Shown: positions 1 through 47,224, counted from the first letter of the stretch. The stretch is 64,000 nt of DNA from Escherichia coli (GCF_024502345.1 NZ_JALDNN010000001.1); one strand, 5' to 3'. Notes: generated by a model from the sequence alone, not told the origin. A program made the numbers and translations.

Positions 1-3000
1 CTGATGCTGCTCATGCTGTTCAGAGAGCACATCCAGCAGCATGGCGTGCGTTTCACGCACGTTCACGTTGAGGCGCACGCTGTTCACCTGACCAAACGAT
101 ACGTTCTGCAACCCCTGGTTGAGCATACGGATACGGTTCTGCTCGCGCTGAATGGTTTTGCGAATGATGTTCGCCACGCTGCGGGAACTGATCGCCAGTT
201 TCTGTTCACGGGAGGTTAATTCTTCGGTCAGACGGCTAAGTTCGATCTCCATCTGTTCGATAGCTTCCACCGGATCATCGGTACGAATAATATCCTGACG
301 AATACGTTCACGCAGATGCTGATAAACCGCCACGAAGAACTGAATTTTACGCTCCGGACGTTTCGGATCTTCCGACATGCGCAGCACGTCGCGCAGATGT
401 TCGTTATCCGCCACCGCCAGACGCAGCGCACCTAACGCCTTATCCGACATGGAACGCAAATCATCAGCGGAGAGATAAGCCAGCTCACGACGGTGTAAGC
501 GGCGCTCAACGCCGTTATCTTTCACCATGCGCATCACCGCACACCAGCCCGCTTTGGCGGTCACTACCTGCTCGCGCATCTCAAAGTAATCACGCTCCAG
601 CTTTCGCAGTTTGCGGGTCAGGTTGTCCATCTCCGCTTCGCAGAAGGTAAGCGCTTTTTCCAGTTGATTGCGGCGTGAACGGTTATTGCTCAGTTGCGCA
701 TGCAGCTCGTCACGGCGAATACGCGCCCGCTCTTCTGCCCCGCTATCAGCACGCACGCCGATATCCTGCAATTCACGTTGCAGATCGTTGAGTAGCTCTT
801 TTTTGGTGTCGTACGAACTTTTCAGCGAAGCCAGCACCTGGTTGTACTGACTCAACTGCGCTGCGTGACCGCGCAACGCTTCGCGAGCGCGGGTACGCTC
901 CGCTTCCGCCTGTTCCAGACGTTCACGCAGTTTTTCGTTGAGATCGTTGTTACCGCTAAGCATTTCTGCCGAGTCAGAATAGCTAAAGTGCGCACGACGC
1001 TGCACCACTTCCGTCAGGGCAAACGCCTGCTGACGGGCATCGCGCTGCATCTGCTGAGAGTACGCGTAATCTTCTTTTAACTGTTCGAACTGTTCCGGGT
1101 CGCTCTGCAATACCGAAACGATCGGTTCCAGTTTCGCCAGTTGATTGCCAAACTGCTGAACAAAACGCGCGGCTTCCTGGGCTTCATCCAGACGTTCGCG
1201 GATTTCATCGACGCGATCCGCCAGGCTGTCATCAGCCAACAGGTTGAGACGCGGCAGAATGCGGTTCAGCGCCGTAACGCCTTCTTTCGCCTGCTCAAAC
1301 TGAATACGCTGCTGCTGGTTATCATTTTCATGATTACTCAACGCCCGCTCCAGTTCGACGCGACGGCTGTTCAGTTGACGGATTTCTGCTTCCGGGTCAG
1401 ACTCAAACGCCACCGCCAGATGACTGCCGATAAAGCGGCTGAACGCCTGATGCAGACGCTGGGTTTTCTGTACATCAAAGGAGAGCGTGGCGAAGCGTTC
1501 GGAAAGCACTTCACGCTCGGCATGGAGGCTTTCAATACGGCTTTCACGCGCAGCACGACCAAACAGCGGCACTTCCGGGAAACGTGAATAACGCCACTGA
1601 CGATCGGCGATTTTCACCACTACCGCTTTTTCCAGCTCATCAACGCTGAACACGCTATCATCGAATGACTGCGGATCCCCTTCGATCAAATAGAGATCTT
1701 CCGGGCAATCGGTCAAGCCTTCCAGGTGTTCGGTTACCTGTGACAGATCTGGCACCACGATGGCGTGGCGTGACGGACCATACAGAGCCGAGAAGTATGG
1801 CGCATCTTCCAGGCTAACGTCGTCATAAATTTCTGACAGCAGCACACCACCAAAACGCTCTGCCAGCGCGTTCAGACGCTGATCTTCAGAGCCGCCAGGC
1901 TGGCTTAAACGTTCGATCTCTTCATCGACGGCGTTTTTGCGCGCGCCTACTTCATCGCGTTCAACAATCGCCTCGCGCTCACGCTCCAGCAACTGTTGCA
2001 GATATTCAGTGACGTCCTGGCTGGAGGAGAACTCTTCGCCGCACTGTTCACTCAACTGGTTGAGACTGTTTTGCGCTGCCAGCCAAACCGGTGCACGCTG
2101 CATCAAACTCTGAATGCGAGACTGCAGCTGTTCCTGCTCCTGGCGCAGTGCCATACGCTCTTCGCGGGCGTTAGACACGCTATCGGAAAGAGAGGCAATA
2201 CGCGCTTCCAGCTCCTGATGCAGGGCTTCCAGTTCATCGATATCAAAATTCTTGCCCTGACGTTTGCAGAAATCTGCCAGCAGACGCTCAGCTTCTTGCT
2301 GCTCGCGCAGACGCTGTTCCAGTTCACTTAAGCGCATCCGCAACGGTTGAACCTGCTCTGCCAGGTGACGCTGATCGACCCCTTCGCGCAGCAGTTCGCG
2401 GGCGACATCCCACGCCTCGTTACGCGCCAGCGGGCCGTTGATTGCCACCACCAGCTGATAAGCCTGCTCAAACTGGCTGTGCGCGGTTTGCGCCATGCTC
2501 ATTTTCTGCTCAAGAGAGAGCATTTTTTCAGTCGCTTCCTGCTCTTTCGCCTGGAAGGTTTCCAGCCATTCGGCGGCGCTGTCGGCGGTTAAGTCCGGCA
2601 GATGGCACAGTTCTTTGGCACGATTAAGTGCAGCAATCGCCTGGTTATACTGGATCGCGCGCGTTTGCTGGACGTCCAGCGCCTGCTGGTAGTCAGCAAG
2701 CTGGCTTTTCAGCTCGTCCACTTCCAGTTCGGCAGCTTCCGCACGAGCCTCATTCTCTTCCTGGCGTTCGATGGCTTCTGCCACCACTTCGTTTTGCTCT
2801 TCCAGACGGATCTGCAGCTCATCGAGATCCGCTTCGTAGCGTTCGATCTTCTCCTGCTGACGCAATGCGGTTTGCACCAGGTTCAGGTGATCGCTGGCCG
2901 CCTGATAATCCGCTTCCAGATCGCCTTCGGCACCGTTGTGCTCTGCCAGCTCACGCGCCATATCGACGTGTTTGTACTGCTCAGCCGCCAGTTGCTGACG

Positions 3001-3894
3001 CGAAGTGTGTAGCTCGCGACGAAACTCCAGGGCTTTGTCGAGATGGACACGGCGCTCGTTGGCGTGACGCATGTAGTCCGCCGCCACGTAGTTGGTGGCT
3101 TCGCTAATCAGATGCTTAAACAGGTCGCGGTCCGACTGGGTGACACGAATCGCTTCCAGCGTCATGCGGTTTTCACGCAGCGCCGCTTCCATGTCCTGGA
3201 ACGCTTTACGCACGCCGCTGTTTTCCGGCAACAGGTAGTCGCGCAGAGAACGGGTAATGGCACTGGAGATCCCGCCATACAGCGAAGCTTCGATCAGACG
3301 ATAGAATTTGCTACGGTCAGATGCGGAGCGCAGACGACGCGCGATGATGCCCAGATCGAACATCAGCGAGTGGTAATCGGTAATGGAGTTGAACTGTTTA
3401 AACTGCACGCCTTCCATCGCCTCGAGCTTGTCTTTCAGCTCGTTAAGCGGCAGCACGCGCGCCTGGCGTTCGTTCAGAGTTTCGGTCACCAGCTGTGTCG
3501 GCTGCACCGACATCGGCAGTCCCTGAATGGCAAATGGTTTGATATCCACTTTACGATCGCGTCCGGCAACCTGTTGCAGACGCACACCGACCACCACGCG
3601 CTGGTGGCGCGAGTTAATGGTGTCGAGCATCGAATAACAGACACCCGCTTTCAGCTTACCGTGCAGACCTTTATCGCGCGAACCGCTGGTGGCCCCGGCT
3701 TCCGTAGTGTTACGGAAATGCAGCAGGGTCAGGTCGGGGATCAGCGCCGTAACGAACGCCGCCATGGTGGTGGATTTACCCGCCCCGTTACCGCCAGAAA
3801 GCGTCGTGACCAGCTCGTCAAGGTCAAAAGTTCGGGCAAAAAAGCCGTTCCAGTTAATCAGCGTCAGTGAGCGAAATTTACCGCGTTCAATCAT
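1..3894 (-). CDS. mukB: Chromosome partition protein MukB (SMC-like), partial: about 190 C-terminal codons lie beyond the window start
   Basis: Minus-strand frame open to the window edge, so absent from the ORF track. N-terminus MIERGKF read codon by codon at 3894..3874; peptide [24 protein letters not shown] read at positions 1..72. Start ATG overlaps the mukE stop by 1 nt (TAATG). Confidence 0.95.
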
Positions 3895-4598
3895 TATTCT
3901 TCCTCTCCGCTATCTGGCTGATTCTCTTCGGTTTCATCGTTGAGTTGCAGATGATTTTCAATCGGCATTGCTTCGCCATCACGAATCAGGCGACGCTGTG
4001 CTTCACGGGGATCGTCGCCAGCACGCACATCGGCTCCGAAGCGGAACACCGATTCGGTAATGCGGAACTTGCTGCTGTCGTGGCCCATAAACCACACCAT
4101 GCCTAAACGACGCAGACGGTTGAGCGAAGAACGTACTTTTTCCTGCAACTTCTGACGGTCAACGTCTGAACCGGTTGAACGGTTGTTCACCAGTTTCAGC
4201 AGTTTCGCTTCATCAGCCAGGGTGAGCAGTTCGTCGTACAGTTCCTGTTGAGTAAAAATCCCCTCATTCGCCAGCCGTTCCGGGCTGAGATAGAGATAAC
4301 AGAGGATTTTCCCGACCATCATATCCAGTTCCGACAAGACGGAACGAGGGATCAGCGTGGTGGAACGTGGGCGTAAATAGAAGAACCCTTCTGGTGCGCG
4401 AATAAGCTCAACGTTATAACGCGCGTAAAACTCTTCCAGATATTCCTGAAAATCCATCAGGAATGCATGATTATCCAGTTCGTCGAGGCCAATATGGCGG
4501 CCTGAACGTAAGGCGCTGTCCAGCGCCGGAAATAACGGATTCGCCAGCGCCTGCGCCAGCTTAACCGGCATCACTTGTTCAATATTTGTCGATGACAT
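3894..4598 (-). CDS. mukE: Chromosome partition protein MukE
   Basis: ORF track 3894..4625 (243 aa). Start placed at the ATG at 4598 (MSSTNIEQ..., 234 aa) to match the known protein; the in-frame ATG at 4625 is an alternative. Overlaps the mukF 3' end by 20 nt. Confidence 0.9.
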
Positions 4599-5901
4599 GC
4601 GCCTGTACCTTGGCTCCGTAATCATTAATCGGCTGCCATTTCGCTGGCAGTCCGGTGAAATCTGCTTGCGCTACGCCAAGACGTACCGCCTGATCAATAA
4701 CAATGCGCGCAACGTCAAAGTGACGTGCACGCGGATACTGTGACAAATATTCGCGTACCACCAGACCAAGATCCAGCGGCACTTGTCTGGTTTTGTACAC
4801 GGCAAGTTGTTCTTCGATGATCGCCGCCAGCTGTTCGCGGATCTCGTTAAACTCTTCGTATTCCAAATCTGGCGGAAGTTCCCCAGTCACTTCTTCATCG
4901 CGCAGTGCCATCTCTTCGTCACGCATATCCAGCAGACGATCGGCATTGGCATAAGTTAGCGCCCACGGCTCATCAAAATAGGTTTGTACCGACTGACGTA
5001 ACCGCTGAGCAAAGACGCGGTTTTTATCCATATCGATCGCGGTACGAATAAATTTATGTACGTGGCGGTCGTAGCCAATCCACAAATCGATGGATTGCTG
5101 GCCCCAACTGATAATACGGTCGAGTTTGCTCTGCAGATCGAACACCAGACGATCGACAAAATGCAGATCGTCATGAGTCATCGTCGCATCCTGAATGCGC
5201 AACAGATTAGCCTGCAATTTGTCGCCTGCCGCTTCCAGCGTATCCTGCAATTCACGCAGCGTTCCGGAAGTTTCCGAAAGCAACAATTCACAGCTGGAAA
5301 TCGCCGCCCGCCAGTCTTTGTTCAGCAACTGGGCGATATCGTCCTTCACCTGCTGCTGCTGTTCGTCCATCAGACGTTGCGTCAGGTCGATACTGTCGAA
5401 AATTTCTGCTACCGAATATTTCAGTGGCGCATAGACATTACGGTGCCAGTGAAATTCATCACCGCCCTCTTCGGCGGCATCTGCTGCGCGTTTGAGCTCA
5501 CCCGCCACAATCGACAACTGCATAGAAAGGCGCAGCGTAGAAAACTCGCGCTGACGGATGTAATAGTCAGTAATGCCGATGCCGAGCGGCGTCAGACGGT
5601 AAATAGCGTTACCTTCCGCCTGCTCGCTGGTAAAGCGGTTCAGCAGACGTTGACGCACCATGTCGTTGATCGCGTTATTGGCGCGCACGCCGATGGTTTC
5701 GCTGGTTTGCTCAAACGCATCACTCACATGGCGGAATGCATCCACCAGCTCGCCTTCACTCATCTCACCATCCAGACGCTCGCCGTTCAGCGTGGCAACC
5801 GCCAGCAGAAAAGAGAGTCGGTCTACCGGCAGCGAGATGGAGAAGTCATTTTTTCTGGCCCAGGCAACCAGTTCGGGGACTGTCTGGGAAAATTCACTCA
5901 T
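4579..5901 (-). CDS. mukF: Chromosome partition protein MukF (kleisin)
   Basis: ORF track, 440 aa, [20 protein letters not shown]...; length matches MukF. 4-nt overlap with the cmoM stop. Confidence 0.95.
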
Positions 5902-43000: not shown

Positions 43001-46000
43001 TTAGTCAAACGGCGGTGGGGCCAGCACTTCACGATTACCGTTGTGCCCCTGTTCGCTGACAATCCCCTGCGCTTCCATCTGTTCGATAATACGCGCTGCA
43101 CGGTTATAACCAATGCGGAACTGACGCTGTACGCCAGAAATTGACGCTTTGCGTTTTTCAGTGACAAACTGCACCGCCTGATCGAACAACGGATCCAGTT
43201 CTTCAGCGCCATCGAAACCGCCCGCGCCACCTTCGCTTTCACTGTCGGAAGTGATGCCATCAACATACTGTGGGCGACCACGCGCTTTCCAGTCCTGCAC
43301 CACGGCATGAACTTCCTGATCGCGAACAAAAGCACCATGGACACGTACCGGCAACGTGGAGTTCGGCCCAGAGTAGAGCATATCCCCCATCCCCAGCAGT
43401 GATTCCGCGCCAGCCTGATCAAGAATGGTACGTGAGTCAATCTTACTGGATACGGTAAAGGCGATACGGGTCGGAATATTCGCTTTAATCAGACCAGTAA
43501 TAACATCAACCGATGGACGCTGAGTTGCCAGTACGAGGTGGATACCCGCGGCACGGGCTTTTTGCGCCAGACGTGCTATCAGCTCTTCCACTTTTTTACC
43601 TACCGTCATCATCAGGTCGGCAAATTCGTCAACCAACACCACAATGTATGGTTCTTTTTTCAGCACCGGATGCTGGGCATCCATACTGTCACCCGGCTTC
43701 CAGTACGGGTCTGGAATCGGACGCATCATGCGATCGGCTTCAGCAATTTTTTCGTTATAACCCGCCAGATTACGCACACCCAGCGCAGACATCAGTTTAT
43801 AACGACGCTCCATCTCGTTAACACACCAGCGCAGCGCGTTGGCGGCATCTTTCATATCAGTAACGACTTCCGTTAACAGATGCGGAATGCCTTCATAAAC
43901 CGAAAGCTCCAGCATTTTCGGGTCGATCATGATGAAACGCACATCTTCTGGCTGTGCTTTATAAAGCATGCTCAGGATCATCGCGTTCACACCGACAGAT
44001 TTACCGGAACCGGTAGTCCCCGCAACCAACAAGTGCGGCATTTTCGCCAGATCGGCAACCACCGGCTCACCGGCGATATCTTTACCCAGCACCACGGTTA
44101 ATGGCGACGGATTATCGCGGAATTTGGCGTTATCCAAAACTTCGCGCAGATAAACGGTTTGTCGTTTTTTATTTGGTAACTCCAGACCTACATAGGGTTT
44201 GCCAGGAATAACTTCAACGACACGCACCGCCACCGTCGAAAGTGAACGGGCAAGGTCCCGTGACAAGTTAGAAATGCGCGCCGCTTTTACGCCAGGAGCC
44301 AGGTTAAGTTCAAAGCGAGTGATAACCGGCCCCGGAGAGTAATTGACGACATCGGCTTTAATACGGAAATCAGCCAGACGCGCTTCCACCAGGCGAGCCA
44401 TTTGTTCAAGCGCAAAGGTATCTACCGGCTCCACTTCGCTCGGCGGCGGTGTCAGCAAATCCAGAGAAGGCAGCGGCGTCGTCGGTTTATGCAACGGACG
44501 GCTGTCGCCATTACGCATCAACAGCGGATGAAGCAGGGTATCCTGCGGCTGTGGCGCAACTGGCTGTTGTGGCTGCTGATACTGCGGCTGCGGCGCAACC
44601 GGTTGTTGCGGCTGTTGATACTGCGGCTGCGGCGCAACTGGTTGTTGCGGCTGCTGATACTGCGGCTGCGGCGCAACCGGCTGTTGCGGCTGCTGATATT
44701 GCTGCTGTGGCGCAACCGGCTGTTGTGGCTGTTGATATTGTGGCTGCGGCGCAACCTGCTGTTGTGGCTGCTGATACTGCGGCTGCGGCGCAACCTGCTG
44801 TTGTGGCTGCTGATACTGCGGCTGCGGCGCAACCGGCTGTTGCGGCTGCTGATATTGCTGCTGTGGCGCAACCGGCTGTTGTGGCTGCTGATACTGCTGC
44901 TGCGGTGCAACCGGTTGTTGCGGCTGCTGTACAGGTTCAACAATTGGCGTAAACAACGGTTCGTGTGGACCATCATCCAGCAACGCTTTCATTGGCGAAA
45001 ATTCAAAATCATCCAGCGAGAACGGATTCGCCCCAGCCGGTTGTTCGCCGGAATAACGTTGTTGTTGAGTTTGCGCAAACTGACGAGCCAGTTCAGCCTC
45101 TGCCGCAGCATCTGCATCTTCTGCGTTTACGGGCACATCATGTTGATACTGTTCGCCATAGCGTTGCTGCTGTGTCTGGGCGAACTGACGTGCCAGTTCA
45201 TCCTGCTGCATCGCATCGATTTCATCATCGTTATACTGATCGCCAGAATCATACTGATTGCGCTGGGCTTCACGGGCTTTCTCTTCCGCCGCACGCTGTG
45301 AGGGCAGCTTAATACCGTAAGACGCCAGTTCACGACGAGTTGGCACGCGGATACGTTTCGGTCGTGGCAACTGCGGGCCAATCCCCTCTTTGACTTGCGG
45401 ACGCGGTCCACCGCTATTTGCCAGACTGAAGACTGGCGCGGCAACGGTTGCGGCAGCCCCCGTCGCCAGTGTCGCTTTTTTCACGCCAGATGCCAGCGGA
45501 GAAACAGCGGCAGCGGCTTCTACTGGAGGTACTGCTGCAACAGAAGGCGCTTTCAACGAAGATTTGATCGGTTCTGGTTCTTTAACCGGTTCTGGAATCG
45601 GTTGATACCAGGCCGCAAGTTGTTCACGTTCACGGGCTCGCTTCTCTTCCACTTCTTCAAAATAGTAAAGCGGCGGACGCGCGGGTTTTGTCTCTTCTAC
45701 AACGGGTTCAGGCTCCACAACAGGCTGCTGTTCAACGGGTTGCGGCTGTTGGTACAACGGCTCCTGAGCGGCTGGCTGCTGATAAGTTTGCTCAGTCTGG
45801 TATGTAGACTGTGGAGCAAAAGTGGATTGCTGCTCTTCGGCTTGCCAGGCGTTACCTGCCACCGGTTGTTCTGGCGCAGGGGCATAATACGGCTGTTGCG
45901 CAGGCTGTTCCGGCGCAGTTGCATAATACGGTTGCTGAACAGGTTGTTCCGCCGCAGGAGCGTAGTAAGGTTGTTGCGCAGGTTGTTCAGCTGCAGGTGC

Positions 46001-47224
46001 ATAATACGGCTGCTGTGGCTGTACTGGTTGTTGCAGCGGCTCATTATATTGCACTGCAGGCTGCGCATATTGTGGCTGCTGTGGGTAACCTTCCGGTGCA
46101 GGAGCAATAACCGGCTCTCCCGTTTGTGGACCCGGTACAGGCTGCCAGGCTACTGTAGGTTGCGAAGGTGGAACATCAACAGAGGCAACAGGCGGCGTCT
46201 GAGTCACAGGTTCAACCGGCGCAGCCCAGCTTTGTGTCGCCGTGGTAGCAGCAGCTGCTACAGCGACAGGTTCGGTAATTGGCGCACCGTTTAATAATGG
46301 ATCGTATTCGTCATATTCTGGCTGCGTTGCACGATTGCCCGAAAATAGGACGTCGTCAGGGTCGGCAGCCACACCGCGTGCAGTGTAGGTAATCTCTTCG
46401 TCATCATCCATCCGCTTACCGGAGAACAACGCAGCGTCTGTTTGCCGCCCCATCGGATTAATGAATTTTTCCGCCAACCGTTTACGACGCGCTAGCGCGC
46501 CGCGAAGAATACGAGCACGGCGTGATTCATGCTGTTTGCCGTGGTTTTCATCTTCATACTCTTCGTCATCTTCATATTCATCTTCATCGACCCAGGTATC
46601 ATCGCGACGGGTACGATTACTGGCGAAGGTGAGAATGTTTAAAATCCAGCCGCCGAGTTTTTCAGCAATGGTCACCCATGACCAACCGGTGAACAGCGTC
46701 AGGCCCGCTGCCCAAACGCAGAGCAGCGCAATAGTTCCCCCGCTACTGTGTAGCAGTGGTTGTAGCGTAGTACTTAGTAAGCTGCCAATGACGCCACCGG
46801 AGGCAAAATACCAGATATCGTCAGCGTTGATTGCCGCCAGACCACAGGAGGTAAGGATGAGCGCCAAAACGCCAATGATGCGTAGCGAAACGGCAAAATA
46901 ATCAATGTATTCGTCGCTGGACTGATGACGCCAGGCAAACCAACAACCGCCGACAATAATGACGGGAATGGTGTAAGCCATCACGCCAAAAATAAAGAAC
47001 AGCGTATCTGCCAGCCACGCACCGGGCATCCCACCTAAATTATGGATAGGTTCATGCCAGGCCGTTTGCGACCAGCTGGGGTCCGAAGGGTTAAAGCTTA
47101 GTAAGGCAGCCATCAACCAGACGGCAAACAGGACAATAAGGATCAGCAACGCTTCCAGAAGGCGACGGCCGCTACTTAACTTTGTCAATGTGACTTCTTT
47201 GTCTTCAGTGTATTCCTGGCTCAA
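43001..47224 (-). CDS. ftsK: DNA translocase FtsK, with expanded low-complexity linker (1407 aa)
   Basis: ORF track, 1407 aa; N-terminal membrane domain, PQ-rich linker with two tandem-repeat arrays, C-terminal motor (Walker A GTTGSGKS). Confidence 0.95.
44544..44930 (-). repeat. ftsK: Tandem 39-bp repeat array A in the ftsK linker (about 10 units, in-frame)
   Basis: Plus-strand unit ctgcggctg(c/t)ggcgcaac(c/t)gg(c/t)tgttg(c/t)ggctg(c/t)tgata repeated head-to-tail; encodes QQPQQ(P/Q)VAPQ(P/Q)QY. Confidence 0.85.
45867..46030 (-). repeat. ftsK: Tandem 39-bp repeat array B in the ftsK linker (about 4 units, in-frame)
   Basis: Encodes EQP(A/V)QQPYYA(P/T)A(A/P) four times; plus-strand unit gg(c/a)gcagg(g/t)gcataatacgg(c/t)tg(t/c)tg repeated. 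Confidence 0.8.

Follow-up and report, generated by a model that had tools for sequence, protein, structure and literature searches.

The window, by which we mean the whole 64,000-nt stretch of Escherichia coli DNA analysed here (GCF_024502345.1 NZ_JALDNN010000001.1), carries the ftsK gene on its minus strand. The gene is listed among the open reading frames with a length of 4,224 nt and 1407 aa, which agrees with the ORF size given in the original prediction. The start codon is TTG (positions 47222..47224), and the same start is found in the K-12 annotation (3225..3227 of the fetched K-12 locus). In a comparison with the NCBIfam FtsK equivalog PRK10263 (cut-off 1566), the encoded protein reaches 3154 bits. 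It has the N-terminal 4-TM domain, the alpha, FtsK/SpoIIIE ATPase and gamma domains, and near-identity to E. coli FtsK, and it is an FtsK DNA translocase. Two arrays of 39-nt tandem repeats, termed array A and array B, are present within the gene. The features are as follows.

43001..47224, minus strand: ftsK coding sequence (DNA translocase FtsK), from the ORF list; 4,224 nt, TTG start, 1407 aa
N-terminal part of the protein: FtsK_4TM, from precomputed hits to the window FtsK
45860..46015, minus strand: array B, four 39-nt units QQPYYA(P/T)A(A/P)EQP(A/V), aa 404-455
44540..44929, minus strand: array A, ten 39-nt units QQPQQ(P/Q)VAPQ(P/Q)Q(Y/D) in protein phase, aa 766-895
44171..44473, minus strand: FtsK_alpha (Pfam), aa 918-1018, the start of the motor
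aa 1026-1239: FtsK_SpoIIIE, from the Pfam scan of aa 208-1407
aa 1342-1402: FtsK_gamma, from the same scan

The Pfam scan, which covered FtsK aa 208-1407, shows no Pfam domain at aa 208-917, and both arrays are therefore within a domain-free linker. Array A ends 22 residues before the start of FtsK_alpha. The linker of E. coli FtsK has been described as Pro/Gln-rich and of low conservation, with a length that differs across species; it is ~650 aa in E. coli, compared with ~200 aa in Vibrio and ~125 aa in Pseudomonas (review PMC5357621). A survey of small in-frame variable segments in E. coli genes counted four in ftsK, more than in any other gene (Touzain et al. 2010, PMC2884548). Arrays A and B and the 24-nt in-unit deletions described below are of the same kind as these segments; the published work is a catalogue of segments, whereas the present analysis gives allele frequencies and a history at the level of units.

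Other repeats are also found in this part of the protein. A two-copy direct repeat of 14 residues, with the copies 36 residues apart, is in the linker at aa 675-725 (45060..45200); it is identical in K-12, and its copy number is constant across 15 aligned sequences. A short acidic repeat of 6/9/18 nt is found at positions 46547..46588, in a 13-residue stretch right after the membrane domain, where the protein sequence is the same in K-12. Four further open reading frames of 152-299 aa overlap the region (44402..45301, plus strand; 44449..44952, plus strand; 44518..44976, minus strand; 45395..46294, plus strand). These were rejected as genes and represent stop-free frames from repetitive CAG/CCG-rich sequence.

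Tandem Repeats Finder places array A at 44543..44929, with a period of 39, 9.9 copies, 90% matches, no indels and a score of 599. The array had been predicted at 44544-44930; its presence is borne out, with the position off by one base relative to the Tandem Repeats Finder span. Array B is found at 45864..46012 with the same period of 39, 3.8 copies and 77% matches, and its units have 74-85% DNA identity. Array A has an identity of 0.906 at offset 39, and identities remain at 0.89-0.91 when the shift is from one to seven units. When the codons of array A were shuffled 1000 times, the best in-frame offset averaged 0.575 and the maximum did not exceed 0.658. The observed value is far above that of the shuffles, and the periodicity of array A is thus not a mere consequence of Gln/Pro-rich composition.

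The units of array A are nevertheless not identical, and the "perfect 39-bp repeats" that had been expected are not found. Adjacent units share ~91% identity, and no exact repeat is longer than 83 nt; the two copies of the 83-nt repeat are offset by 156 (44649..44731 compared with 44805..44887, minus strand), where units "f c" match units "b c". There are 11 variable sites among the 39 of each unit. Third codon positions account for eight of these, second-position C/A changes that exchange P and Q for two, and a T/G change that converts the terminal Y to D for one. Differences between units had been thought to be only synonymous or P/Q, and this holds except for the terminal residue. Pairwise comparisons among the ten units give 131 synonymous and 46 non-synonymous codon differences, with the latter limited to the two P/Q positions and the last residue. 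The synonymous bias, together with a natural copy-number range of 3 to 10 (see below), suggests some constraint on the sequence of the unit and perhaps on the length of the linker.

K-12 MG1655 ftsK (NC_000913.3, 933224..937213) is 3990 nt and encodes 1329 aa. Alignment of the two proteins shows 7 substitutions and 78 gap columns. The gaps form two blocks, one of 26 aa in array B and one of 52 aa in array A, and the 7 substitutions are all outside these blocks. The K-12 length given in the original prediction is correct, and the N-terminus is the same apart from one I6T substitution. The excess over K-12 does equal six 13-aa units, as the 78 gap columns show. The heading of the prediction implies that a 10-unit array explains the extra length; array A does have 10 units, but it accounts for 52 of the 78 residues (four units), and the other 26 residues (two units) are in array B. 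K-12 has 6 units in array A compared with 10 in the window, and 2 units in array B compared with 4, so that the reference has fewer units than the window in both arrays.

The two arrays are not new. CVN001, a locus of the generic E. coli MLVA scheme, is attributed, reportedly, to Lindstedt et al. 2007, and ms07, from a Shigella/E. coli MLVA scheme, is said to come from Gorge et al. 2008. The primer sequences of CVN001, ms07 and ms06 used here are those reprinted in later open-access papers. CVN001 has a 39-bp unit and is amplified with primers AACCGGCTGGGGCGAATCC and GGCGGCGGTGTCAGCAAATC, and the allele number is calculated as (product - 250)/39 (PMC8143711). The ms07 locus is given as the same locus as CVN001, and ms06 is another 39-bp locus (PMC4553163, PMC8215070). 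Each of the six primers (forward and reverse for CVN001, ms07 and ms06) has an exact match in the window, and the sites are on either side of the arrays; the CVN001 and ms07 sites have 0 mismatches and one occurrence each.

44442..44461, plus strand: CVN001 R primer site, exact match
45024..45042, minus strand: CVN001 F primer site, exact match
44447..44466 (R) and 45170..45189 (F): ms07 primer sites, exact match, 743-bp amplicon (587 bp expected for K-12)
45747..45766 and 46106..46125: ms06 primer sites, exact match, flanking array B, 379-bp amplicon

The CVN001 amplicon of the window is 601 bp, which corresponds to allele (601-250)/39 = 9; that of K-12 is 445 bp, or allele 5. The ms06 amplicon is 379 bp in the window compared with 301 bp in K-12. 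The published ms06 range is 301-379 bp, with 379 bp representing allele 4 (PMC8215070), and the published alleles are 2, 3 and 4 (PMC8215070, PMC4553163). Array A has the flanking primers of CVN001/ms07, the 39-bp unit and a copy number that is variable between strains, and it is the same locus, with the window allele 9 at or beyond the usual upper end. Array B has the flanking primers of ms06, the 39-bp unit and 2, 3 or 4 units in the fetched genomes. It is the same locus as ms06, and its 4 units are ordinary, since 7 of the 13 other fetched E. coli genomes have them. Arrays A and B are therefore the known VNTR typing loci CVN001/ms07 and ms06, and the feature was already known. These loci went unrecognized in the original prediction, the core reading of which is supported. 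The open-access typing papers on CVN001/ms07 give no gene name, and the placement inside ftsK comes from the primer mapping described here. A 39-bp VNTR of ~9 copies is also known in Salmonella ftsK, where it is a typing marker termed SENTR2 = STTR7 (PMC2430564). The Salmonella enterica locus is in another species; the likeness is that the orthologous gene also has a 39-bp VNTR that is in frame and within the linker.

The population range of array A was determined with a query that consisted of the array and 300-nt flanks, compared with 5,426 complete E. coli genomes. The number of units was calculated from the span of the match, and this conversion was validated on fetched loci. Two different rankings were each sampled systematically at regular intervals, and the two samples together contain 110 fully joined rows. 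Six units are present in 43 of these rows and seven units in 50, so that ~85% have 6 or 7. Five units are found in 2 rows, eight in 6 rows, nine in 2 rows and ten in 0 rows; another 7 rows represent alleles with an extra 24-nt in-unit deletion. The range across all 110 rows is 5 to 9 units. The published frequencies of CVN001, whose alleles are numbered one below the unit count, agree with this distribution: in a Swedish ESBL collection with alleles 4 to 8, allele 5 is at 40%, allele 6 at 40%, allele 7 at 13%, allele 8 at 5% and allele 4 at 1% (PMC5217547). With 0 of 110 rows at ten units, the rule of three gives a frequency below ~3%, and the ten-unit array A is a rare upper-tail allele. Alleles of ms07 up to 12 have been reported in one gel-based study (PMC8215070). 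In a spread sample of genomes, spans of the whole ftsK gene are 3,873 to 4,146 nt with a mode of 4,107, and none is 4,224.

The fetched genomes widen the range of array A to 3 and 10 units, with 2 to 4 units in array B, and every allele is in frame. Repeat number is thus a natural length polymorphism in E. coli, as had been proposed from the window. Individual alleles are as follows.

RCAD0514 (NZ_CP034106.1, fetched locus 501..4373): 3 units in array A and 2 in array B, ftsK of 3,873 nt and 1290 aa
E15: 5 units in array A
K-12 and CX04: 6 units in array A
O157:H7: 7 units in array A
TUM14759: 8 units in array A
BS90R-A: 9 units in array A
CFT073 and OkiPb01705: array A with an extra 24-nt (8-codon) in-unit deletion, 83 aa, which is not a multiple of 13

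RCAD0514 has the shortest natural allele encountered; array A is just 39 aa in this complete-genome isolate. Approximately 6% of the sampled genomes have array A spans of the 24-nt-deletion kind (846/845, 806 and 884 nt), and such alleles would give non-integer CVN001 calls. A phase-variable or contingency locus, acting through a frame shift or a promoter-spacing switch, was also considered and rejected: 15 of 15 alleles are in frame, including those with the 24-nt deletions, and the array is inside an essential gene.

The exact allele of the window is absent from the 5,426 complete RefSeq E. coli genomes, where the best identity over the array and flanks is 96.6%. The flanking 12.9 kb has at most 99.4% identity to any of these genomes, with O121:H19 strains, FDAARGOS_943 and FDAARGOS_944 among the best matches, and the source strain of the window is therefore not one of the 5,426.

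Typing of the 39-nt units was carried out on the window and 14 other sequences, which consist of 13 E. coli genomes and one metagenome contig that is identical to the window. With units designated by letters, the order in array A and in related alleles is as follows.

Window: a b c d e f c g h i
Res13-PER07-33: a b c e m g x i (8 units)
USMARC-49610: a b c e w y z
FDAARGOS_943: a b c c e m t g u
44742..44834, minus strand: perfect tandem stretch of 93 nt (2 x 39 + 15), with an exact 54-nt run at offset 39

The window has "c d e" in place of the "c e" of the related alleles, and unit d is the expected product of a 39-nt duplication across the c/e junction. The perfect 93-nt stretch is the footprint of the recent single-unit duplication that made unit d, and it bears out the recent duplication that had been predicted. 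The block "f c" closely resembles "b c", which is four units upstream, and accounts for the 83-nt exact repeat. The closest sampled allele, that of Res13-PER07-33, differs from the window by two separate 39-nt insertions and 4 mismatches. This would be the most economical derivation, with the order and number of expansions a reconstruction; none of the sampled genomes has the immediate parent allele.

An allele of equal length is found in the complete genome of strain ETEC6335 (NZ_CP122588.1, fetched locus 1206..5429), which also has 10 units in array A and 4 in array B and an ftsK of 4,224 nt and 1407 aa. Its units are in a different order, a b j a b j p q r s. Array A in this strain has an exact 148-nt run at offset 117, and the closest relatives of the strain have 7 units. 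The unit order, the run at offset 117 and the 7-unit relatives together indicate that the same length was reached by an independent, exact three-unit (117-nt) duplication. The lengths in the window and in ETEC6335 represent size homoplasy, of a type that is invisible to size-based MLVA.

Tandem arrays in general are hazardous for assembly, and this hazard had been pointed out for array A. Expansion or scrambling of the array by the assembler, with a true allele of the usual 6 to 8 units, would be consistent with the absence of the exact window allele from the complete genomes. However, the units are imperfect, and with a longest exact repeat of 83 nt, reads or k-mers longer than 83 nt place each unit uniquely. 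At least 10 public contigs, one of them a 4.74-Mb chromosome, encode exactly this 1407-aa protein, which several NCBI accessions list as E. coli FtsK. The DNA of an independently assembled metagenome contig (MEGAHIT k127, ERZ925130) is identical to that of the window over 2,000 nt that span both arrays, and the unit order of the window is an orderly derivative of related alleles. The hazard is judged to be small on the basis of the imperfect units and the identical metagenome DNA. Mis-assembly of array A is unlikely and was rejected because of the imperfect units, the 83-nt limit on exact repeats and the identical DNA and protein in independent public assemblies; that the true allele has 6 to 8 units is extremely doubtful.

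A second explanation is that the long linker allele is adaptive in the window lineage, by way of the reach of the motor from the septum or contacts with division proteins, and is not the result of neutral VNTR drift. Mutations in the linker lead to filamentation, and parts of the linker bind FtsQ, FtsL, FtsI and FtsZ (review PMC5357621). The natural copy number of array A is also bounded, at 3 to 10. On the other hand, copy number varies freely inside and across phylogroups, and the 1407-aa length was reached twice by different routes and without a shared background. The only allele-swap experiment found is from Salmonella. In S. Enteritidis, exchange of an ftsK allele with an 84-bp indel, which removed 2 of 9 repeats, left survival in egg white, the sole reported phenotype, unaffected (PMC6137255). 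An adaptive allele in this lineage is very improbable, and the broader proposal, that selection acts on the number of units in the ftsK linker arrays and that the Pro/Gln units represent a length-tunable tether or a divisome-contact region, is very unlikely. If selection does act, rare long alleles such as 10 + 4 would measurably alter the timing or efficiency of DNA clearance and of chromosome-dimer resolution at the closing septum.

The window very probably has a long allele of a well-known in-frame 39-bp VNTR pair in the E. coli ftsK linker, which would have arisen by stepwise gains and is probably near neutral. Arrays A and B encode Pro/Gln-rich 13-residue units in the linker that joins the membrane domain at the N-terminus to the alpha-beta-gamma DNA motor at the C-terminus. 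In the proposed mechanism, the number of units may shift through replication slippage or unequal exchange among imperfect units, and the sequence by itself would be compatible with either process. Since 39 nt is 13 codons, the gain or loss of a unit leaves the reading frame intact and alters only the length of the disordered tether. The window lineage would have gained units in steps to reach 10 + 4 units and 1407 aa, at the rare upper end of the species range. The length change probably has little or no effect on fitness, given that the Salmonella allele swap was without effect on egg-white survival. The sequence of the unit looks constrained, while the copy number appears to float between ~3 and 10.

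The significance of the allele is small beyond bookkeeping. The VNTR to which this long allele belongs has served for the typing of E. coli and Shigella since ~2007 and has a Salmonella counterpart. Only two points are mildly notable: the allele is one of the rare long ones of the species, and an equal length arose independently in another strain. Size-based MLVA requires a caveat, because the same CVN001 amplicon size does not mean the same allele; the window and ETEC6335 each have 10 units in a different order. In annotation and in comparisons with K-12, FtsK proteins of ~1290 to 1407 aa are to be expected in E. coli and do not represent errors. The natural series of 3 to 10 units provides ready-made alleles for testing the length of the FtsK linker.
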